DNA of 64,000 bases from positions 29,396-93,395 of the forward strand of contig VXXM01000071.1 of NCBI GenBank assembly GCA_009835395.1, written 5' to 3'. The DNA is from Acidimicrobiia bacterium (GTDB lineage Bacteria; Actinomycetota; Acidimicrobiia; Acidimicrobiales; CATQHL01). This document shows, in pieces, positions 53,459-63,776 of this stretch. A model generated the notes under the pieces. That model made no database searches. It had not been told where the DNA came from and saw nothing but the letters and a program-made list of their open reading frames with translations. The translations under genes were made by a program, and so were the position numbers. Positions within the stretch are counted from its first letter, which is position 1. Every line of letters starts with the position of its first letter.

Positions 53459-54676
53459 ATGAGCATCGTCGACCTCGACGAGGCGCCGAGCCCGATGCTG
53501 CTGCCGGACCCGCCGGCACAGCGGGTCCGCTACACGCTCATCTCGGTGGACGACCACCTCGTGGAGCCGCCGTGGCTGTTCGAGGGGCGCCTACCGCGCC
53601 GCTACCAGGACCTGGCCCCGCGGGTCGTCGAGCAGGGTGACGGCACGCAGGCGTGGGTCTTCGACGGCGAGGTCTACGAGCAGTTGGGCCTCAACGCCCA
53701 GGTGGGGCGGGCCGACCGCGACGACGTCATATTCGAGCCGGCCCGGTTCAGTGACATGCGGCGCGGGTCCTGGGACATCCACCAGCGCATCAAGGACATG
53801 GACCTCGGCGGCGTGTGGGCGTCGGTGTGCTTCCCGTCGGTCATCACCGGCTTCTGCGGGGCGGTGTACTCGAGTTGCTCGGATGCCGACCTGGGCCTGG
53901 CGGTGACCCGGGCCTTCAACGACTGGATCCACGAGGAATGGTGGGGCTCCTACCCCGAGCGCATCATCCCGATGGGCATCACCTGGCTGCGCGACCCGCA
54001 TCTGGCTGCCGCGGAGATCCGCCGCAACGCCGAGCGGGGCTTCACGGCGGTCACGCTGCCGGAGAACCCGGCGCACATGGGCCTGCCGTCGATCCACGAC
54101 CGCTGGTGGGATCCGCTGCTGGCGGCCTGCGAGGAGACCGGGACGGTGATCTGCCTGCACACCGGCTCGTCGGGCCACTGGATGCCCCAGGACGAGGCCG
54201 GCCCGCACCTGGCCGTGCGGGCCACGCTGTTCCAGATGCACGCCTACGTGGCTGCCGCCGAGTGGGTCTGGTCGGGCATCGGGCTGCGCTTCCCCGACAT
54301 CCGCATCGCCCTGTCCGAGGGCGGCTGCGGCTGGGTGCCCACCATGTACGACCGCATGCGCCACCAGATCGAGGTCTCCGGCCACGGTCGCCAGGATTGG
54401 CCCGAGGGCGCCACCGGCCCCCACGAGCTGCTGCTGCGCAACATCTGGTACTGCACCATCAGCGACCCTTCCAGCATCGACGCGGTCGTGGCCCTCAACC
54501 GCGGCCACGTCATGATGGAGGTCGACTACCCCCACGCCGACAGCACCTGGCCCGGCTGCCAGGACGCCCTCGAGGAGATGATCGGCCACCTGCCCGACGA
54601 CGTCATCGCCGACATCTGCCACCGCAACGCCGCCGCCCTCTTCCGCCACCCTCTCCCCACCGAGACCCTGCCCTAG
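53459..54676 (+). CDS. amidohydrolase-2 family protein
   Basis: 405 aa. N-terminal LISVDDHLVEPP metal motif, later CLHTGSSG and MEVDYPHADS segments typical of PF04909-type enzymes. Confidence 0.65.
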   Translation: MSIVDLDEAPSPMLLPDPPAQRVRYTLISVDDHLVEPPWLFEGRLPRRYQDLAPRVVEQGDGTQAWVFDGEVYEQLGLNAQVGRADRDDVIFEPARFSDMRRGSWDIHQRIKDMDLGGVWASVCFPSVITGFCGAVYSSCSDADLGLAVTRAFNDWIHEEWWGSYPERIIPMGITWLRDPHLAAAEIRRNAERGFTAVTLPENPAHMGLPSIHDRWWDPLLAACEETGTVICLHTGSSGHWMPQDEAGPHLAVRATLFQMHAYVAAAEWVWSGIGLRFPDIRIALSEGGCGWVPTMYDRMRHQIEVSGHGRQDWPEGATGPHELLLRNIWYCTISDPSSIDAVVALNRGHVMMEVDYPHADSTWPGCQDALEEMIGHLPDDVIADICHRNAAALFRHPLPTETLP

Positions 54677-54702
54677 CGCCGCTGCGCCCGGCCGGGTGGC
54701 GC

Positions 54703-56979
54703 TCAGAGCCGCGTGCGGATCACGTTGAGGGCGCTGCCGGCACGGAACCAGTCGATCTGGTCGGCCGACATCGTGTGGGTGGTGTCGAACAGATCCGTCG
54801 AGCCGTCGGGGTGTGACACCTCCACCCGCACCGGCTCGCCGGGCGCCAGGTCGGCCAGGCCCCGGATGGCGATGCGGTCGTCCTCGCCGATGCGGTCGTA
54901 GTCGGCGGGGTCGGCGAACGTGAGCGCCAGCACGCCCTGCTTCTTGAGGTTGGTCTCGTGGATGCGGGCGAAGGAGCGCACGATGACGGCCACGCAGCCC
55001 CGGAACCGGGGCTCCATGGCGGCGTGCTCGCGGGAGGAGCCCTCGCCGTAGTTGGCGTCACCCACGGCGACCCACGACCAGCCGGCGGTGTGGTAGCGCT
55101 CGGCGATCTCGGGATACGGGCGGACCTGTCCGTCGGTCTGGTCCTTGCCCTCGCCGACCGCGCCGCCGAAGGCGTTGACCGCGCCGGCGAAGAGGTTGCC
55201 GCTGATGTTCTCGAGGTGCCCCCGGTAGCGCAGCCACGGCCCGGCGGCGGAGATGTGGTCGGTGGTGCACTTGCCGGCCGCCTTCACCAGCACCGGCAGG
55301 TTCTCGTAGTCCCGCCCGTCCCAGGGGGTGAACGGCTGCAGCTCCTGCAGGCGCCTGCTGGTCGGCGAGATGCGCACCTCGATGGCGGCCCGCTCCGCCT
55401 CCGGCGGCGGGGCGACGAAACCCGCCTCGCCGGGATCGAAGCCGTCGGGCGGCAACTCGGTGCCGACCGGCTCGAGCAGGCGCACCTCCTCGCCGGCGTC
55501 GTTGGTGAGGGTGTCGGTGAGCGGGTCGAAGTCCACCCGGCCGGCCAGGGCAAGGGCCACCACCACCTCCGGTGAGGTAACGAAGGCCAGTGTGGAGGCC
55601 AGGCCGTCGTTGCGCTTGGGGAAGTTGCGGTTGTAGCTGTTCACGATCACGTTGACGTCGCCCTCGGCCACGTCGCTGCGCGACCACTGGCCGATGCACG
55701 GCCCGCAGGCGTTGGCCAGCACCGTGGCCCCTGCCTCCTCGAAGACGCCCAGCAACCCGTCGCGGGTGATGGTGGCGCGGATCTGCTCGGAGCCCGGCGT
55801 GACCAGCAGCGGCGCCTGCACCTTCAGCCCTTTCGCCACCGCCCCGGAGACGATGCTGGCCGCCCGGGTGATGTCCTCGTAGGAGGAGTTGGTGCACGAG
55901 CCGACCAGCGCCGCGGAGATCTCCATGGGCCAGCCCTCGGCGGCCGCCTCGGCGCCCAACTCCGACACCGGGCGGGCACGGTCGGGCGAGTGGGGTCCGT
56001 TGATGTGCGGCGCCAGGGTGGACAAGTCGATCTCGACGACCGAGTCGTAGCAACCCTCCGGGTCGGCGATCACGCCGTCGTCGGGCCGCAGGTGCTCGGC
56101 GACGGCGTCGGCCGCCGCGGCCACCTGCTCGCGCCCGGTGGCCTTCAGGTAGCGGGCCATGGACTCGTCGTAGGCGAACAGCGAGGTGGTGGCGCCGATC
56201 TCGGCGCCCATGTTGCAGATGGTGGCCTTGCCGGTGGCGGAGATCGTCTCGGCGCCGGGACCGAAGTACTCGACGATGGCGCCGGTGCCGCCGGCCACCG
56301 TCAGCAGGTCGGCCACCTTCAGGATGACGTCCTTGGGTGCCGACCAGCCCGACAGGCGCCCGGTGAGGCGCACGCCGATGAACTTCGGCCAGCGCACATT
56401 CCAGGGGAACCCGGTCATGACGTCCACGGCGTCGGCGCCGCCCACACCCACCGCCACCATGCCCAGCCCGCCGGCGTTCGGGCTGTGGCTGTCGGTGCCG
56501 ATCATCATCCCACCGGGGAAGGCGTAGTTCTCCAGCACGACCTGGTGGATGATGCCCGAGCCCGGCTTCCAGAACCCGGCCCCGTAGCGGGCGCTCACCG
56601 ACTCGAGGAAGTCGTAGACCTCGTCGTGGTTCTCCAGCGCCGCCAGCAGGTCGCGCCGCGCGTCCACCTTCGCCTGAATGAGGTGGTCGCAGTGCACCGT
56701 GGTCGGCACGGCAACCTCGTCGAGCCCGGCGGTCATGAACTGCAGCCAGGCCATCTGGGCCGTGGCGTCCTGCATCGCCACCCGGTCGGGGCGGAAGTCG
56801 ACGTAGCTGCGCCCCCGCCCGGGCAGGGGTCCCGACGGGTCGTCGAGGTGGCCGATGAGGATCTTCTCCGCCGCCGTCAGCGGACGGTCGGTGGCGGCCC
56901 GGGCGGAAGAGACCGCCGCGGCCAGGCGACCGTATGCGGCCTCGATCAACTCGATGGGGGTGCTGGCATGGACGGCCAT
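54703..56979 (-). CDS. acn: aconitate hydratase, mitochondrial (Aco2) type
   Basis: ATG at 56977-56979 ([10 protein letters not shown]...). Near-continuous manual alignment to eukaryotic mitochondrial aconitase ([83 protein letters not shown]). Confidence 0.9.
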
Positions 56980-57051
56980 GGTGTACCTCTCGGCGCGGGG
57001 GCTCGCCTCGTTTCTACCGCCCGCGCGGCCCGGCCCCACCGGCCGGCGCCG

Positions 57052-57957
57052 TCAGCGGGGCCAGCGGCGGGCTCGTGGCTTGCTGCGGTGCGACAGCGCC
57101 CAGGCGCGACGCCAGGAGGCGGCGTCGGGGCCGGTCAGCGTGGGGGTGGTGCGGGTGTGCACCCGGTGGCGTGCCTGCCACCAGTCGGTGGTGACCTCGT
57201 CGGCCAGGGCCGCCACGGCGGCCTCGATGCGGGCCCCGAGGGTGCGGATCCGCTCGCTGGGGTCGGGGCGGACCGGATCGCCGAAGACCACGAGCGTGCG
57301 TCCCGGAGTCGGCACCAGCCGCCCCTTCGGCAGGATCTTGCGGGTGCCGGCCAGGTACACGGGCACGACCGGCACGTCGCAGCGGTGCGCCAGGTAGGCG
57401 GCGCCGCCCCGGAACGGCTGGCCCCAGCCGTCGGTGCTGCGCCCTCCTTCGGGATACAGCAGCAGGCTCCAGCCGCGGCGCACCAGGCCGGCGACCTCCT
57501 GCGCGGAGTCGCGGCCCACCCGGGCCCGCTCCACCGGCACGGCCCCCATGAACAGCGCCGAGGCGACTCCCTTGGGGCGGGTCGGGAAGAAGTAGTCCGC
57601 CGCCGCCGCCACGATCAGGGTGTGGCGCCACGGCTCGGGGATCGACGTCATCAGCAGCGGGGTGTCGAGGTGGCTGTGGTGGTTGGCGGCGAAGATGACC
57701 GGCTCGCCGTCCAGGGCCTCGAGGCGGTCCAGGCCGAGGCGGGCGGGCTGGGCGGCGGCCGCCACCACCGGTCGCCAGAGCAACTCGATCACAGAGGCGC
57801 GCACCATGCGGGCGGGCCAGCGGCGGGCCCAGTCGGTGTCGAAGTCGGCGCCGAGCACGGCGGGGAGGTGCTGCGGAGGCGCCGACAGCGGCACGGTCGG
57901 GGGGCGCCACGGGAAGTCCAGGCTCCGCAGCAGGCCACCCACGGGGTTGCGCCTCAC
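57052..57957 (-). CDS. 1-acyl-sn-glycerol-3-phosphate acyltransferase-like (PlsC family)
   Basis: HX4D motif NHHSHLD and the YPEGGRS block. Start set at GTG 57955-57957 (VRRNPVGG...). A TTG at 57993 is an alternative that would overlap the upstream gene. Confidence 0.7.
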   Translation of the reverse strand: MRRNPVGGLLRSLDFPWRPPTVPLSAPPQHLPAVLGADFDTDWARRWPARMVRASVIELLWRPVVAAAAQPARLGLDRLEALDGEPVIFAANHHSHLDTPLLMTSIPEPWRHTLIVAAAADYFFPTRPKGVASALFMGAVPVERARVGRDSAQEVAGLVRRGWSLLLYPEGGRSTDGWGQPFRGGAAYLAHRCDVPVVPVYLAGTRKILPKGRLVPTPGRTLVVFGDPVRPDPSERIRTLGARIEAAVAALADEVTTDWWQARHRVHTRTTPTLTGPDAASWRRAWALSHRSKPRARRWPR

Positions 57958-57988
57958 GACACGTCCGCCATCACGACACGTCCGCCAT
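57954..57988. repeat. perfect 17-bp tandem duplication at the LarA-like / PlsC gene junction
   Basis: CACGACACGTCCGCCAT occurs at 57955-57971 and again at 57972-57988. On the coding strand each copy reads ATGGCGGACGTGTCGTG. Confidence 0.9.
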
Positions 57989-59587
57989 GACAAAGGGGGG
58001 CAGGTGCAGGTGCGTGACCGACGGTCGGCTGCCCACCACGTCGCCGGCGATCTCGAAGGCGTCGCTGAGGCTGGAGGCCGGGGCGAACCCCATGCGCCGC
58101 ACCGCCGCCCGGTCGCCGCCCACCACGATGACCCGGCCCAGGTAGCTCAGCGCGTGCGCCCCCCAGTACCACATGTAGAAGGGGTGCACGCCGTGGTAGG
58201 CGTAGGAGGTGCGGTAGAGGTGCCGGTACCACTCGTCGGTGGCGTACTGCAGCTCGTAGCGGGCCTCGATCTCGGCGGGGTCGGTGGTGTCTGCCAACAC
58301 CTGCTCGAAGAAGTCGATGTAGCTGGGGTGGTGCACCGGGTGGAACTCCCAGGGCGTGGGGTGGGTCATGATCACCACCCCACCGGGGCGCACCAGCGGC
58401 CGCCCCCGGTAGAGGTTGAAGAAGTACCCGAGTCCCAGGCACATGACCAGGATCGGGTTCATGATGGAGTTGACGTTGTAGGGGCAGATGTAGGGCAGCC
58501 CCATGGTCAGCACGTCGGTCTGGCCCTCCACGGCCACGAGTTGCTGGCGGTAGACGTTCTCGGTGGTGACCTTGTGGACGGCCTCCACCTCGCCGGCCTG
58601 CACCGAGGTGATGGCGTACGGCGCCCGCCAGGACTGGAAGGCACGCCGGCGGGCGGCCGGCGACATGACCTGCAGCCCGCCCTGCATGGCCAGGAACGTG
58701 GCCCGATCCCGTGCGGTCCACTCCCACTCACGCTTCTGCAGCATCGACAGCGAGCCGCTGGTGCCGAAGCTGTTGTTGTTGAGGGTGGTCTCGATCTGGA
58801 ACACCCGGGGCCCGGATTCCCGCAGCACCGCACCCTGGCGCCAGTTGGAGTGGTGGAGTTCGGAGTTGCGCTGGTCCATGAACGAGCGCGACTTCAACAT
58901 CGTGGCGACGTTGTGGTGGTGGCGCAGACCCTGGTAGCCCGACAGGCCCGTGGCGGTGCTCTTCCAGCCGCCGTCCATGGCCACGAGGTTGACGTTCACG
59001 TACACGACGAGATCGCTCTCGGCGGCGCGGCGGCTGATCTGCACCTCCTCGCCGTGGCCGGTCACACCCAGGACCACCATGCCGTCGGGATCCTCGGCGT
59101 CGTGGTTGTAGAGGCGCCGCGACGGGGCGAAGGCTTCGTAGACGCGGTCTCCGACGGCGTGGCGCAACTCGGCCTCGGTCATGCGCCGGTGCAGCGCCAG
59201 GGCGGCGATGATGTGTACGTCGTCGACGCCGGCCGCGGCGGCCAAGTCCAGCACAGTCTCGATCACCTGCTGGCGCACATCGGGACGCTGCATCGGGGGC
59301 AGCGGCAGCGAGATGTCGTCGAAGGCGATGGTGAGTCTCATGCCGGGCCGCAGCAGCGCCGGCAGCGGCTCGCTGTCGATGGGGTGCTCGAGGGCGTGGC
59401 GGATGGCGCCGGCGGGATCCGGGAGGCCCTCCAGAGGGCTGGGCGGGTAGATCACCCGGGAGCGCCCCGCCGGCAGCCGCTCGAGCCGGAACCCCTCGCC
59501 GTGGTGGAACAGGATCGGCGGGGTCGACCGCTCGACCTCCAGCACGAAGCCCGGTCGCGGGGTGGGGGAGGCGGTGCGGGGACTCAT
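57971..59587 (-). CDS. LarA-like (lactate racemase N-terminal domain/DUF2088) protein, extended form
   Basis: 538 aa. Manual alignment to L. plantarum LarA over RLTIAFDD..., ALHRRMTEAEL (His108 equivalent), GGWKS (GGRKS Lys184 equivalent) and RHHHN (NH His200 equivalent). Confidence 0.55.
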   Translation of the reverse strand: MSPRTASPTPRPGFVLEVERSTPPILFHHGEGFRLERLPAGRSRVIYPPSPLEGLPDPAGAIRHALEHPIDSEPLPALLRPGMRLTIAFDDISLPLPPMQRPDVRQQVIETVLDLAAAAGVDDVHIIAALALHRRMTEAELRHAVGDRVYEAFAPSRRLYNHDAEDPDGMVVLGVTGHGEEVQISRRAAESDLVVYVNVNLVAMDGGWKSTATGLSGYQGLRHHHNVATMLKSRSFMDQRNSELHHSNWRQGAVLRESGPRVFQIETTLNNNSFGTSGSLSMLQKREWEWTARDRATFLAMQGGLQVMSPAARRRAFQSWRAPYAITSVQAGEVEAVHKVTTENVYRQQLVAVEGQTDVLTMGLPYICPYNVNSIMNPILVMCLGLGYFFNLYRGRPLVRPGGVVIMTHPTPWEFHPVHHPSYIDFFEQVLADTTDPAEIEARYELQYATDEWYRHLYRTSYAYHGVHPFYMWYWGAHALSYLGRVIVVGGDRAAVRRMGFAPASSLSDAFEIAGDVVGSRPSVTHLHLPPFVMADVS

Positions 59588-59594
59588 CGGCCGT

Positions 59595-61922
59595 TCATCG
59601 TCGCACGACCGGCTCGGCCAGCGGCAGCAGCTTGCGCGGCCCGCCGGGGGCCTGCTTGAAGTTCTCGATGAGCCAGCCCCGGCGCCGGGCGAGGGTTGCC
59701 AGCTTGGTCTCGGGGTTCACCGCAACCGGGAACCCCACGGCCTCGAGCATGGGCAGGTCGCTGGTGGAGTCGGCGTAGGCCACCGACTCGGCGAGTGAGA
59801 TTCCCTCCCGAGCCGCGTAGTCCAGCAACGCCTCGGCGCGGCTCTCCCCGGTGGGCGGCACGGTGGCGAGTTGGCCGGTGTAGGCGGATCCGCCGCGGGT
59901 GCGGGTCAGGGAGGCGCACACGATGTCGTCGAACAGCGGGGCGAACGGGGCGATCACGAAGTCCAGCGCCCCGGTGATCAGCACGGTGCGGTGGCCCAGC
60001 GCCCGGTGGTGGCGCACCCTGCGGATGGCCGCGGGGAACGACTGGCGCAGCAGCAGATCGCTGAACATCTCGAAGCTGTCGTCGGCCACCTGGTCGACGG
60101 GGGCCCCGGCGAAGCGGCGGTAGAAGTAGCGCAGGAAGTCGCTGCGGTCGTGGCGGTCGAGGTCCAGCAGCTTCGGCGCCTCGGCGAGGGTGCGGGCCAC
60201 CAGGCGGGCCCGCTCGGCGGTCGGCATCCGCTTGGTCGCCAGCCAGCCCCACGAGGCGACGACGTTGGAGGCGACCAGCGTGTTCTCCAAATCGAAGGCG
60301 GCCATGTGGCGCTGCGGCGACAGCACCTGCTGGCGACGCCGGGTGTCCCGGTCGACCCCGGCCCTCACCGCCGGTGCCGTCTTGAGCCGTCCCTGGGCGA
60401 TCACCGACGGCAGGTGGATCTCGGTGAGGTAGCGGCGCCAGTCGATCCGGCGCGGATCGAAGTTGAAGCTCTCCCGATCGTCGGGTGTCAGTGCCTCGTG
60501 CAGCGCCAGCAGCTCACGGATCCCGAAGGTCGCCTGGCACTCCACGTAGCTGCTGTAGAGGTCCACGTAGCTGAGCGCCCGCTCCACCTGGGCGCGCTTC
60601 TCGGCGAAGTCGGCCGCGACGCCCGCCTTCTCGCCGCGGATCGGCAGCGCGCTGAGCACCTTCTCGCCGGTCTCCAGGGCGCGCTTGGCGCGCTCCAGGC
60701 TGTTCTGGACGCGCTTGCGGCTGGGATACGACCAGCGCGGCGGGCTGATTGGCTGGTTGCGCTCGTCGTAGATCGGGTTCTCACAGAACCAGGCGTGCGA
60801 CCAGTCGTGGAGGTCCTCGAAACGGAACGGGTTGACCTCGCTGGAGGCCACCTGCACCACGTTCGGTTGGCCGTCGGCGGCAGGGCCGTCGGCGGCGACG
60901 GCGCACACCGCCGCGGCCACCTGGTCCACGGGGATGACGTCGAGGGTTCCCTCGGGCGTGCCGGGGAAGTCCTGCAGCAGGCCGCGGGCGTAGGAGATGA
61001 TGATCGGCTCGGCCATGCGGAAGCCGCGGATCCAGCCGGGGAACGGCTCGGCCAGGGCCGACTCGATGATCGACGGCCGCACGATGGTGAGCGGGATGGC
61101 GCCGCGGGTCTCGGTCAGCGCCGCCTCGGCGAGGGCCTTGGTGAGCCCGTAGGCGTCGGGGAACCCCAGCGAGGCCGCCCGCGCCCGCCCCACGTCGACC
61201 AGCCGGGTGCGCACCCAGCGCTGGCGGATCTGCTCGCGCTTGGCGCTGAGCGCGGCGGTCCCGGCGGCGCCGAGTTCGCCGTCCGCCTCCTTGGCGAACT
61301 CCTCGAGGCGCTCCGGGGTGCGGCTCTCGTCCTCTATGGCATCGCGATTGCGGCGTGCCGACGCCGCCTCGGCGCGCCAGTCCACCGCCACGGCGAAGTG
61401 GCTCTCGGCGAGGAGTTCCTCGGGGGCGAACCCCCGCCGGTTGCCGGCCACGTACGCGGTCGAGACCGAGACCAGGTGGGGAGTGGTGCCGATGTCGGCC
61501 AGCAACTCCACGAGGCGGATCGGCCCCAGCAGGTTGGTCTCCACAGCCAGGTCGAAGGGGTTGTCGAAGGCCACCGCCGCGGCGGCGTGGACGACGATGT
61601 CGCAGCCGGCCAGGAGCTCCCGCCCCTCGGCGTCGCAGCCCAGACCGTCGACGCTGACGTCGGCGGCGACGGCCTCGATGCGCTGGGCCGTCTCGGCGGC
61701 GAAACCGTCGCGGCCGAGGGCCTCCCGGAGGCGGTCGAAGGCGTCGTTGCGCAGCACCTCGCGGCGGATCCGCTCGGCGGCGCCGCGGCGGCCGGGTCGC
61801 ACCAGGAGGACCAGCTCGCATTCCGGGACCGAGCGCAGCAGCTTCTCCACCAGAGCGGTTCCCAGGAAACCGGTGGCGCCGGTGAGTGCGATGCGCTTGC
61901 CGGCCAGGGCCTCGGGGATCAC
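59595..61922 (-). CDS. fatty acyl-CoA reductase (NAD-binding 'male sterility' domain) fused to a HAD-IB hydrolase domain
   Basis: GTG at 61920-61922. N-terminal LTGATGFLGTALVEKLL Rossmann fold and a YGLTK-type catalytic pattern. The C-terminal HAD motifs are FDLENTL, ITGA and YADSTSDLPML. Confidence 0.75.
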   Translation of the reverse strand: MIPEALAGKRIALTGATGFLGTALVEKLLRSVPECELVLLVRPGRRGAAERIRREVLRNDAFDRLREALGRDGFAAETAQRIEAVAADVSVDGLGCDAEGRELLAGCDIVVHAAAAVAFDNPFDLAVETNLLGPIRLVELLADIGTTPHLVSVSTAYVAGNRRGFAPEELLAESHFAVAVDWRAEAASARRNRDAIEDESRTPERLEEFAKEADGELGAAGTAALSAKREQIRQRWVRTRLVDVGRARAASLGFPDAYGLTKALAEAALTETRGAIPLTIVRPSIIESALAEPFPGWIRGFRMAEPIIISYARGLLQDFPGTPEGTLDVIPVDQVAAAVCAVAADGPAADGQPNVVQVASSEVNPFRFEDLHDWSHAWFCENPIYDERNQPISPPRWSYPSRKRVQNSLERAKRALETGEKVLSALPIRGEKAGVAADFAEKRAQVERALSYVDLYSSYVECQATFGIRELLALHEALTPDDRESFNFDPRRIDWRRYLTEIHLPSVIAQGRLKTAPAVRAGVDRDTRRRQQVLSPQRHMAAFDLENTLVASNVVASWGWLATKRMPTAERARLVARTLAEAPKLLDLDRHDRSDFLRYFYRRFAGAPVDQVADDSFEMFSDLLLRQSFPAAIRRVRHHRALGHRTVLITGALDFVIAPFAPLFDDIVCASLTRTRGGSAYTGQLATVPPTGESRAEALLDYAAREGISLAESVAYADSTSDLPMLEAVGFPVAVNPETKLATLARRRGWLIENFKQAPGGPRKLLPLAEPVVRR

Positions 61923-61930
61923 CCTCTCTT

Positions 61931-62013
61931 TCTACCATGTGGTAGAGGCATCTACCACACGGTAAGGGGGCAAGAGCCATCAATCGCGCCGAGATGCCCT
62001 ACCAGATGGTAGA
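61931..62013. promoter_or_regulatory. three TCTACCA-N2-TGGTAGA-type operator palindromes in the divergent FAR / TetR intergenic region
   Basis: The site at 61931-61946 is perfect (TCTACCATGTGGTAGA). The site at 61951-61966 is degenerate (TCTACCACACGGTAAG). The site at 61998-62013 is near perfect (CCTACCAGATGGTAGA). Confidence 0.65.
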
Positions 62014-62037
62014 GAGCCCGGGGCGCAACTAGGCTGG

Positions 62038-62655
62038 TTGCCGGTGGAGACCCGGGATCGCATCCTCGAGGCGGCGCTCATGTCCTTCGGCGGGCGGGGC
62101 TACGACGCCGTGTCGCTGGACTCCATCGCCCGCGACAGCGGGATCCGCAAGCAGACCGTCCTGTACTACTTCGGCTCCAAGGACGCGCTCATGGCGGCGG
62201 TCATCGATCAGACGGTGGCCGATCTGACCGCGGCGCTGCTGGAGTCGGTGGAGGCGGCGCCCGCGGCCACCGGCGGTGCTGAAGGGCCATCGGATGTCTG
62301 GGCAGGCGTGGAGGCCGTGGTCCGGGCGGTGTTCCGCTTCGCCGTGCGGCGCCCGGAGATGCTGGGCCTGCTGCGGGAGGTCACCCGCCTGGGCCCGCCG
62401 TGGATGGACCGCGTGCGCGCCGGGTTCGAGCCCCTGGTGGAACGTGCCCGCGCCTTCCTGGAGGCGGGCATGGAGTCCGGCGCGATCCGCCGCTGCGACG
62501 CACGGCTGCTGCTTGTCTCCACCTACTCCACCGTCATGGGCGTCGCCACCGAGGTGGAGGTGCTGCGCGCCGTCGGCGTCGAGCCCACCCTTCGCGACAC
62601 CGTCATCCGCCGCCGCGAGCTCCTCCGCTTCCTCCGCTCAGCCCTCGTCGGCTGA
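62038..62655 (+). CDS. TetR/AcrR family transcriptional regulator
   Basis: 205 aa. HTH segment RILEAALMSFGGRGYDAVSLDSIARDSGIRKQTVLYYFGSKDAL. The start is TTG at 62038 or GTG at 62044. Confidence 0.85.
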   Translation: MPVETRDRILEAALMSFGGRGYDAVSLDSIARDSGIRKQTVLYYFGSKDALMAAVIDQTVADLTAALLESVEAAPAATGGAEGPSDVWAGVEAVVRAVFRFAVRRPEMLGLLREVTRLGPPWMDRVRAGFEPLVERARAFLEAGMESGAIRRCDARLLLVSTYSTVMGVATEVEVLRAVGVEPTLRDTVIRRRELLRFLRSALVG

Positions 62656-62687
62656 GGCTGGGGCCCGTCGGGGCGGCGTTGCCGAAC

Positions 62688-63776
62688 TCAGCGTTCGGTG
62701 CGGGTGTGGGCGGAGCGGCGGTGGTGGCGGTCGAGGGCCAGGTGGACCAGTTCGCGGATCAGGGCCGGGCCGTCGAGGCCGGAGACGGCCCAGAGGCGGG
62801 GGTACATGGAGATCGGGGTGAACCCCGGCATGGTGTTGATCTCGCTGACGATGAAGCGCCGCCCCGGTGACGCGGCCTCGTCGTAGAGGAAGTCCACTCT
62901 GGCGAGACCCTCCACGTGCAGCGCCCGGGCGGCTGCCACCGCGAGGTCCTGCACCTCGTCGGTCACCTCGGCGGGCAGGTCTGCCGGGGCGTGCAGCTCG
63001 GCTGTGTCGTTGAGGTATTTGTCGGCGTAGTCGTAGAACTCGCCGCCGGGCACGATCTCGCCGGGCAGGGAGGCCCGCAGCTCCTCGTTGCCCAGCACGG
63101 ACACCTCGATCTCCCGCCCGGGCACGAACTCCTCGATGATCAGCCGCTCGTCGTACTCCGCGGCCAGCGACAATGCCTCGGCGACCTCCGCGACGCCGGC
63201 GGCCTTGGAGACGCCGATCGAGGAGCCCATGTTGGCGGGCTTCACGAACACCGGGCTGCCCAACTCCGCCAGCAGATCGGCCGCGGTCTCGGGGCTCACG
63301 TCGCCGCCGTGCAGCACCATGTGGCGGGCCACGGGCAGCCCGGCGGCGGCCAGGAGGCTCTTGGAGGTCGGTTTGTCCATGCACACCGCACTCGACAGCA
63401 CGCCCGGCCCGACGTACGGGACGCCGGCCATCTCACAAAGGCCCTGGACGGTGCCGTCCTCGCCGAAGGGTCCGTGCAGGACGGGGAAGACGACCGGTGA
63501 CTCACCGGGTCGCCGCTCGAGTGCCCCGTCCACCGACACCGTCGGGAGGTCGTCGCCGAGCGCCGGGAGGGCGTCGTCGGCGGCTCCGTGCTCCAGAGCC
63601 ACAGCCGGTGGCGGCACCCAGCGGCCGTCGCGAGTGATGCCGAGGAGATCCACGTCGAGCCCCGCTGCGCGGGCGCACTCGGCCACGTAGCGGCCCGACA
63701 CCCGTGAGACCTCGTGTTCGGCCGACCGGCCGCCGTACAGTACGACCAGCCGGATTCGCTCGGTCACGTGCGCCAC
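62688..63776 (-). CDS. ddl: D-alanine--D-alanine ligase
   Basis: 362 aa. N-terminal block VVLYGGRSAEHEVSRVSG, ATP-grasp blocks VFVKPANMGSSIGVSK and EINTMPGFT. Confidence 0.9.
   Translation of the reverse strand: MAHVTERIRLVVLYGGRSAEHEVSRVSGRYVAECARAAGLDVDLLGITRDGRWVPPPAVALEHGAADDALPALGDDLPTVSVDGALERRPGESPVVFPVLHGPFGEDGTVQGLCEMAGVPYVGPGVLSSAVCMDKPTSKSLLAAAGLPVARHMVLHGGDVSPETAADLLAELGSPVFVKPANMGSSIGVSKAAGVAEVAEALSLAAEYDERLIIEEFVPGREIEVSVLGNEELRASLPGEIVPGGEFYDYADKYLNDTAELHAPADLPAEVTDEVQDLAVAAARALHVEGLARVDFLYDEAASPGRRFIVSEINTMPGFTPISMYPRLWAVSGLDGPALIRELVHLALDRHHRRSAHTRTER

Follow-up and report, generated by a model that had tools for sequence, protein, structure and literature searches.

A TetR-flanked operon of Acidimicrobiia joins a LarA homologue to lipid-type enzymes and may be a counterpart of the myxobacterial elb genes

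What does a homologue of the nickel-pincer enzyme LarA do in an operon of lipid-type enzymes? The question is raised by a locus in a 64,000-nt stretch of contig VXXM01000071.1 of an Acidimicrobiia bacterium, hereinafter designated the window. The window lies on contig C41 of a metagenome-assembled genome (MAG) of Acidimicrobiales (G000), which is 3.16 Mb in size and 94% complete. At this locus, three minus-strand genes encode a fatty-acyl (thioester) reductase fused to a HAD-IB phosphatase-like domain (reductase-HAD), a LarA homologue (LarAH), and a PlsC/AGPAT-type acyltransferase (PlsC). The analysis supports a compact and conserved operon of lipid-type enzymes beneath a divergent TetR gene. 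Judging from the sequences, we propose that this operon is TetR-repressed and serves a specialised glycerolipid pathway, as the actinobacterial counterpart of elbB-elbC-elbD of Myxococcus xanthus, with 1-O-alkyl (ether) glycerolipids as the most likely products. We put the probability of this proposal at about 0.5.

Organization and conservation of the operon

The three minus-strand genes had been described in an earlier note on this DNA as lying 7 nt and about 13 nt apart under a divergent TetR gene. All of the genes named there are present, the TetR-family regulator is supported by a match to Pfam TetR_N (5.6e-14), and both gaps agree with our reading of the sequence. Specifically, 7 nt separate the stop codon of reductase-HAD (59595) from the ATG of LarAH (59587), and 13 nt separate the stop codon of LarAH (57971) from the GTG of PlsC (57957). 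The latter value hinges on the choice of the GTG, because the longest PlsC reading frame, from TTG 57993, would overlap LarAH by 23 nt. The 13-nt spacer is explained by a 17-nt tandem duplication of TGGCGGACGTGTCGTGA, one copy of which alone would give a GTGA stop/start overlap of the two genes. The duplication leaves the LarAH and PlsC frames both intact, and an ancestral GTGA overlap is probable. Diverged copies of the duplication are also found in a related locus (L009 10600-10634), indicating that it predates the split from that lineage.

A survey of gene neighborhoods of the kind suggested by the earlier note revealed conserved synteny. The order Ddl, TetR (divergent), reductase-HAD, LarAH, PlsC is found in all 80 related Acidimicrobiia loci, as far as their contigs extend, and the arrangement of the operon is far from chance. 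The TetR gene is beside the operon in most related loci. Among public sequences, that of 'bacterium isolate IRC4_bin_37' is closest to the locus, with 97% protein identity. Further relatives are Candidatus Poriferisocius (MAGs, apparently of sponge associates), which is among the nearest, Microthrix, Aquihabitans, and Salinilacustrithrix. Among the operon proteins, LarAH shows the strongest conservation, with 70-80% identity, versus 50-64% for the reductase domain and 42-60% for PlsC.

In about half of the 80 loci, a Zn-dependent medium-chain dehydrogenase of ~400 aa (COG1063-like) is encoded between reductase-HAD and LarAH, and the five-gene form with this dehydrogenase recurs in other families of the phylum. 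In the source genome, an orthologue with 57% identity is located outside the operon, on contig C39. It adjoins an HD-domain gene and the gene of ribosomal protein L33, and its neighborhood contains no further lipid genes.

The divergent promoter region contains TACCAnnTGGTA palindromes at 61933-61944, 61953-61964, and 61999/62000-62011. These three are the only matches in the 64 kb, where 0.1 would be expected. In 55 related loci, the palindrome likewise occurs just 5' of reductase-HAD; these include loci of other families in which the TetR gene is located at the far end of the operon. The palindromes are regarded as putative TetR operators. A promoter and terminator scan of 54400-62700 gave no match, and such a scan is uninformative at the G+C content of the window (~71%).

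The domains of the flanking enzymes retain most of their characteristic motifs. The reductase part matches Pfam NAD_binding_4 (4e-55) and Sterile (1.7e-8; 35.0 bits, slightly below the 35.4 cut-off) and contains the Rossmann motif GATGFLG (GxxGxxG) and the YxxxK motif YGLTK, both kept in orthologues. The HAD part matches Pfam HAD (1.3e-26) and the HAD-IB model TIGR01490 (100.8 bits, above the cut-off), and its nucleophile Asp544 and motif IV (ADSTSD) are likewise present and kept in orthologues. Motif I reads FDLENT (residues 543-549), with Glu instead of Asp at the position two residues after the nucleophile. The same Glu is found in almost all Acidimicrobiia orthologues, while distant orthologues and an ElbB-like HAD protein have the canonical D-x-D. 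PlsC matches Pfam Acyltransferase (2.9e-17) and contains the blocks HHSHLD (HX4D), YPEGGR ((F/Y)PEGxR), and PVVP, the first two of which are kept in orthologues. It is one of four PF01553 proteins encoded in the genome. Membrane helix prediction found none in reductase-HAD, LarAH, or PlsC.

Table 1. Coordinates of the operon, its control region, and other features discussed in the text. Positions without a prefix are those of the window; L numbers denote loci, and G000:C positions are those of contigs of the source genome.
Feature	Coordinates	Strand	Remarks
Reductase-HAD fusion	61922..59595	-	775 aa; fatty-acyl (thioester) reductase aa 1-~510, HAD-IB phosphatase-like aa ~540-755
LarA homologue, LarAH14/15/16 family (ElbC-like)	59587..57971	-	538 aa; single-histidine nickel-pincer-type site predicted
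PlsC/AGPAT-type acyltransferase	57957..57052	-	start GTG 57957; alternative TTG 57993
TetR-family regulator	62038..62655	+	divergent from operon
Divergent promoter region	61923..62037	.	115 bp; three palindromes, putative TetR operators
17-nt tandem duplication	57957..57990	-	two copies; covers LarAH stop and PlsC start; direct sequence reading
Aconitase	54703-57039	-	mitochondrial-type (TIGR01340, 1079 bits)
Second LarA homologue	G000:C87:21033-21635 (L008 769-2274)	-	501 aa; Lar_N + LarA_C
Dehydrogenase orthologue	G000:C39:30011-31180 (L091 8009-9193)	-	COG1063-like
Class B LarA-like genes	L094 8001-9563; L097 2836-4386; L092 8001-9602; L101 9001-10587		resemble group 16 of Desguin et al. 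2020

Active site of the LarA homologue and its cofactor genes

The assignment of the second gene to the LarA family, made in the earlier note from the letters, passes a profile search. LarAH matches Pfam Lar_N (4e-38) and scores 880.8 bits against NCBIfam NF052592 (cut-off 740), covering profile positions 1-519 of 520. This model describes the 'NPN-dependent hydroxyacid isomerase, LarAH14/15/16 family', where NPN stands for nickel-pincer nucleotide. The closest solved structures by sequence are those of LarA_Sp and LarA_Bw (9q2u, 9q3k, 9q3j; Gatreddi et al. 2025, group 17), with an E-value of 4e-29 for PDB 9q2u. The AlphaFold2 model of LarAH (pLDDT 95.4) is predicted to resemble the same enzymes, with 9q3k and 9q3j as best fold matches (TM 0.76/0.85), and the top 19 PDB matches of the model are all LarA-family structures. 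LarAH and LarA_Sp/LarA_Bw have in common one catalytic His, an Asn in place of the second, a Lys tether, and a Ni-binding His. Other than that, they differ considerably: the identity is ~20%, LarA_Sp and LarA_Bw occur in a glycolytic or carbohydrate gene context rather than a lipid one, and they are ~40 residues shorter.

Active-site residues were mapped by HMMER alignment to LarA_Sp combined with the residue list of Gatreddi et al. 2025; the reference residues of LarA_Lp are K184 (tether), H200 (Ni), D72 (ribose), and the catalytic H108 and H174. D91 of LarAH corresponds to LarA_Sp D73, which binds the cofactor ribose, H133 corresponds to the catalytic His H115, and K209 corresponds to K195, the covalent cofactor tether. 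The Ni ligand is H225, which aligns with LarA_Sp H211 (the paper prints His221) and follows the Lys by 16 residues, as in LarA_Lp. N200 corresponds to LarA_Sp N185 and occupies the place of the second catalytic His (LarA His174). D91, H133, K209, and H225 are invariant among 32 homologues, with identity down to 30%, and N200 is also listed among the conserved LarAH positions. R134, next to H133, is invariant as well, and residue 135 is mostly basic. Because the four ligand and catalytic positions are invariant, LarAH appears from its sequence to be built to hold the nickel-pincer nucleotide. Because the second catalytic His is replaced by Asn200, it is predicted to be unable to run the two-histidine racemase mechanism.

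The genes larB, larC, and larE, which the earlier note had proposed to look for elsewhere in the genome, were all found. larB and larC are adjacent on contig C25, and larE is located on contig C34; LarB, LarC, and LarE score 217, 425, and 286 bits, respectively, all above the cut-offs. Of 401 genomes sampled across the phylum, 98 have a match above the NF052592 cut-off (a tally that takes in the unpublished genomes G088 and G318), and 87 of these 98 genomes with LarAH14 carry larC. Within the window's own taxonomic order, all 17 genomes with LarAH14 carry larC and all 5 without LarAH14 lack it, and 8 further genomes of the class have neither LarAH14 nor larC. The larC tallies take in the unpublished genomes G088, G318, G001, G048, and G120; none of the single claims made here depends on these genomes. 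Carriers in culture that possess larC as well are Salinilacustrithrix flava EGI L10123, Aquihabitans sp. G128, and strain IMCC26207.

The earlier note had suggested that a 2-hydroxy centre could be inverted by a racemase/epimerase homologue. Such a true NPN racemase or epimerase could act on a 2-hydroxy acid or interconvert glycerol-3-phosphate and glycerol-1-phosphate prior to acylation, and it would fit both the membership of the LarA superfamily, with Lys tether, Ni-binding His, and one catalytic His, and the presence of larBCE in the genome. However, two-base racemisation needs the second catalytic His that is replaced here by Asn. Groups 14 and 15 have been reported to lack the His174 equivalent, and purified LarAH14 of Frankia, when assayed for seven α-hydroxyacid racemase or epimerase activities, showed none of them (Desguin et al. 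2020, PMC7583248). Inversion of a 2-hydroxy centre is unlikely on these grounds, and we consider a true racemase or epimerase, in any of the forms named, very improbable.

Relation to the elb operon and a proposed pathway

The association of LarAH with lipid-type enzymes has been described before. The earlier note had proposed an undescribed lipid-modification module, of which the lipid module is retained and the novelty is not: the association is already contained in Table S1 of Desguin et al. 2020, and NCBIfam models the family. In that table, the neighbors of LarAH group 14 are COG0204, COG0560, and COG1063 (88% each) and COG3320 (50%), those of group 15 are COG0451, COG0560, and COG1022, and those of group 16 are COG0204 and COG0560. 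The window operon is a further member of LarAH group 14 and a rearranged form of the elb-type cluster. It agrees with group 14 (Frankia Franean1_4168; NF052592) in the curated family, in the neighbors COG0204/COG0560/COG1063/COG3320, and in the loss of the His174 equivalent. There is no essential difference, and only the COG1063 dehydrogenase gene is displaced from the operon here. An equation of LarAH15 with gluconate 2-epimerase was considered and rejected: the enzyme described in the Journal of Biological Chemistry in 2024 is from Phytophthora and belongs to the GntE branch, and the numbering used there differs from group 15 of 2020.

The link to ether lipids comes from the elb operon of M. 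xanthus (Lorenzen et al. 2014, as reviewed in PMC9131029 and PMC13012113). Because elbA to elbE run from MXAN_1531 to MXAN_1527 (PMC13012113) and elbD is MXAN_1528 (PMC11980068), elbC is MXAN_1529. MXAN_1529 belongs to LarAH group 15 in the data set of Desguin et al. 2020, sister to group 14, and the window operon is for this reason taken to be a rearranged counterpart of elbB-elbC-elbD. In the review PMC9131029, elbC is 'of unknown function', elbB encodes a HAD protein, elbD encodes a reductase-ACS-ACP-acyltransferase (ACS, acyl-CoA synthetase; ACP, acyl carrier protein), and elbA and elbE encode NAD-dependent epimerase-family proteins. In M. xanthus, formation of alkyl and vinyl ether lipids requires elbD in a route independent of AGPS, and it is a fatty aldehyde rather than a fatty alcohol that is elbD-dependent (PMC9131029). 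A literature search combining lactate racemase, DUF2088, LarA, or nickel-pincer with ether lipid, elbD, or plasmalogen turned up no publication connecting the two subjects. In a preprint on ether lipids of sponges, elb-like clusters are attributed to Poribacteria and Acidobacteriota, and Acidimicrobiia are not among their carriers.

Homologues of LarAH are found in arrangements close to that of elb. The gene of P0127, which is 47% identical to the window LarAH, is directly 5' of a gene for a 1561-aa protein with NAD_binding_4, AMP-binding, PP-binding, and Acyltransferase domains, which is followed by an epimerase gene. In L101, the LarAH gene (homologue P0167) lies between a HAD gene and an ElbD-like gene with NAD_binding_4 and AMP-binding domains, and the reductase of the latter is 31% identical to the window reductase domain over ~515 aa. 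By sequence, the correspondence between the window operon and elb holds for four functions, namely a member of the LarAH14/15/16 family (elbC), a HAD protein (elbB), and the NAD_binding_4 reductase and AGPAT-type acyltransferase domains of ElbD, all tightly linked. It does not extend to the ACS and ACP domains or to ElbA/ElbE. The parts are also joined differently: the reductase is fused to HAD in the window operon and to the acyltransferase in ElbD. In place of ElbA/ElbE there is a Zn-dependent medium-chain dehydrogenase, whose gene is part of the operon in relatives but lies on a different contig in the source genome. In addition, the window operon would be under TetR control and has an actinobacterial host.

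In the pathway that we propose, the reductase would convert acyl-CoA or acyl-ACP of the cell pool to a fatty aldehyde or alcohol, the acyltransferase would acylate a glycerol-phosphate backbone, the HAD domain would remove phosphate from a lipid or backbone intermediate, and the dehydrogenase would reduce a keto intermediate. LarAH might take a hydride from the sn-2 C-OH of a glycerol-phosphate-type intermediate by means of its tethered nickel-pincer nucleotide. The transient C2 carbonyl would activate C1 for ether formation, and the hydride would then be restored on the same face. This 'borrowed hydride' role of LarAH can be likened to that of the C2 keto group and AGPS in animals. Specifically, LarAH and the ElbC family as a whole would be nickel-pincer-dependent non-racemases. 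By transient sn-2 oxidation of an acyl- or lyso-glycerol-phosphate, they would catalyse or enable the attachment of a fatty aldehyde or alcohol in 1-O-alkyl ether linkage. This assignment of a chemistry to LarAH is a tentative one that we hold to be doubtful.

The animal and myxobacterial AGPS route consists of GNPAT, FAR, AGPS, and alkyl-DHAP (alkyl-dihydroxyacetone-phosphate) reductase. The pathway proposed for the window operon resembles it in that both would employ a reductase of fatty-acyl groups, an acyltransferase of the glycerol-phosphate type, and the reduction of a keto group. It differs in that the operon encodes no AGPS flavoenzyme and a LarA-like protein is found instead; the functional replacement of one by the other is hypothetical.

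The dehydrogenase brings in a different product. The operon could make an acylated or alkylated lipid or head group derived from a polyol or sugar acid. The substrate of LarAH would be a phosphorylated form of such a compound, in line with what is supposed for gluconate 2-epimerases and the group-17 enzymes. The Zn-dehydrogenase would then oxidise or reduce the polyol, HAD would dephosphorylate it, and PlsC would acylate the product. Consistent with this idea, the operon-linked dehydrogenase is nearest to polyol dehydrogenases, its best matches being L-idonate 5-dehydrogenase, scyllo-inosose 3-dehydrogenase, and galactitol-1-phosphate 5-dehydrogenase, and the invariant R134 and mostly basic residue 135 beside the catalytic His are potential contacts for a phosphate or carboxylate group. 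However, these matches are weak and far under the equivalog cut-offs, a polyol product leaves the long-chain acyl reductase without a role, and the other well-defined context of the LarAH14/15/16 family is the elb ether-lipid operon. We regard the polyol product as unlikely.

Several observations weigh against an ether-lipid pathway that depends on LarAH. Concerning the pathway, Pfam finds no AMP-binding (ACS) or PP-binding (ACP) domain in any operon gene, both of which are present in ElbD, and genes for ElbA/ElbE-type short-chain dehydrogenases/reductases are missing from the operon. An elbB insertion, expected to be polar on elbC, is partly rescued by elbD alone (PMC9131029), which argues weakly against elbC being essential. 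A literature search for ether lipids in Acidimicrobiia found no report. We know of no precedent for the chemistry proposed for LarAH.

Concerning the cofactor, the presence of larBCE is not specific to the LarAH of the operon, because the genome encodes another LarA homologue of ordinary appearance. This second protein matches the malate-racemase family best, though under the cut-off of that family, and it could also be a client of the genome's larBCE. Moreover, nine near-complete genomes of one family (L103-L106 in G014, G183, G387, and G116, and also G321, G222, G074, G376, and G287) carry the whole operon, in the form reductase-HAD / Zn-dependent alcohol dehydrogenase (Zn-ADH) / LarAH / PlsC / TetR and with the Lys/His site of LarAH intact, and LarB, LarC, and LarE were not found above the cut-offs in them. 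Finally, the operon context is shared by 'class B' LarA-like proteins of other lineages, in which the tethering Lys and the catalytic and Ni-binding His are no longer present.

Both the class B proteins and the genomes with the operon and without larBCE would fit a LarAH that is not catalytic at all and serves as a scaffold, a lipid-binding protein, or a regulatory subunit, with the operon yielding fatty alcohols, wax esters, or ordinary acylglycerols. However, the residues of the NPN site are strictly conserved here and in most genomes, to ~30% identity, LarAH is better conserved than PlsC or the reductase domain, and its presence or absence tracks larC exactly in the window's own taxonomic order. 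A non-catalytic LarAH is improbable in view of these three observations, and a TetR-repressed ether-glycerolipid operon is the reading that we prefer.

Neighboring genes and implications

The gene directly 3' of PlsC, on the same strand, encodes an aconitase and is a conserved neighbor in Acidimicrobiia; the genome contains four genes of the aconitase family in all. The gap between the two genes is 12 nt to the first GTG, or 72 nt to the likelier ATG at 56979. The aconitase gene was considered as a fourth gene of the operon and rejected. It is adjacent in only ~10 of the 80 loci and 1-8 kb off or out of range elsewhere, and it was left outside the operon because its distance in relatives spans 0.1-8 kb.

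A LarA-like domain also occurs in a different setting. In a marine metagenome, L099 2400-5243 encodes a 947-aa protein, probably eukaryotic, in which a LarA-like domain with 36% identity to the window LarAH is combined with a chlorophyll a/b-binding domain. The contigs of P0129, P0147, P0165, and P0124 are too short to show the gene context of these homologues.

Taken alone, the window adds less than the family does: another family member, whose operon has a triple operator and whose dehydrogenase gene is displaced. For the family, AGPS-free synthesis of alkyl ether lipids in aerobic bacteria has been an open problem since the description of ElbD in 2014, and ElbC/LarAH offers a testable candidate. 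If the chemistry proposed for LarAH is right, LarAH would replace AGPS in the AGPS-independent 'ElbD' route, bacterial ether-lipid synthesis under aerobic conditions would depend on nickel, and the reach of the nickel-pincer cofactor would be widened from small hydroxy acids to lipid synthesis. If the ether-lipid reading holds, these bacteria would be overlooked sources of non-isoprenoid ether lipids, which are used as geochemical biomarkers and are found in sponges.

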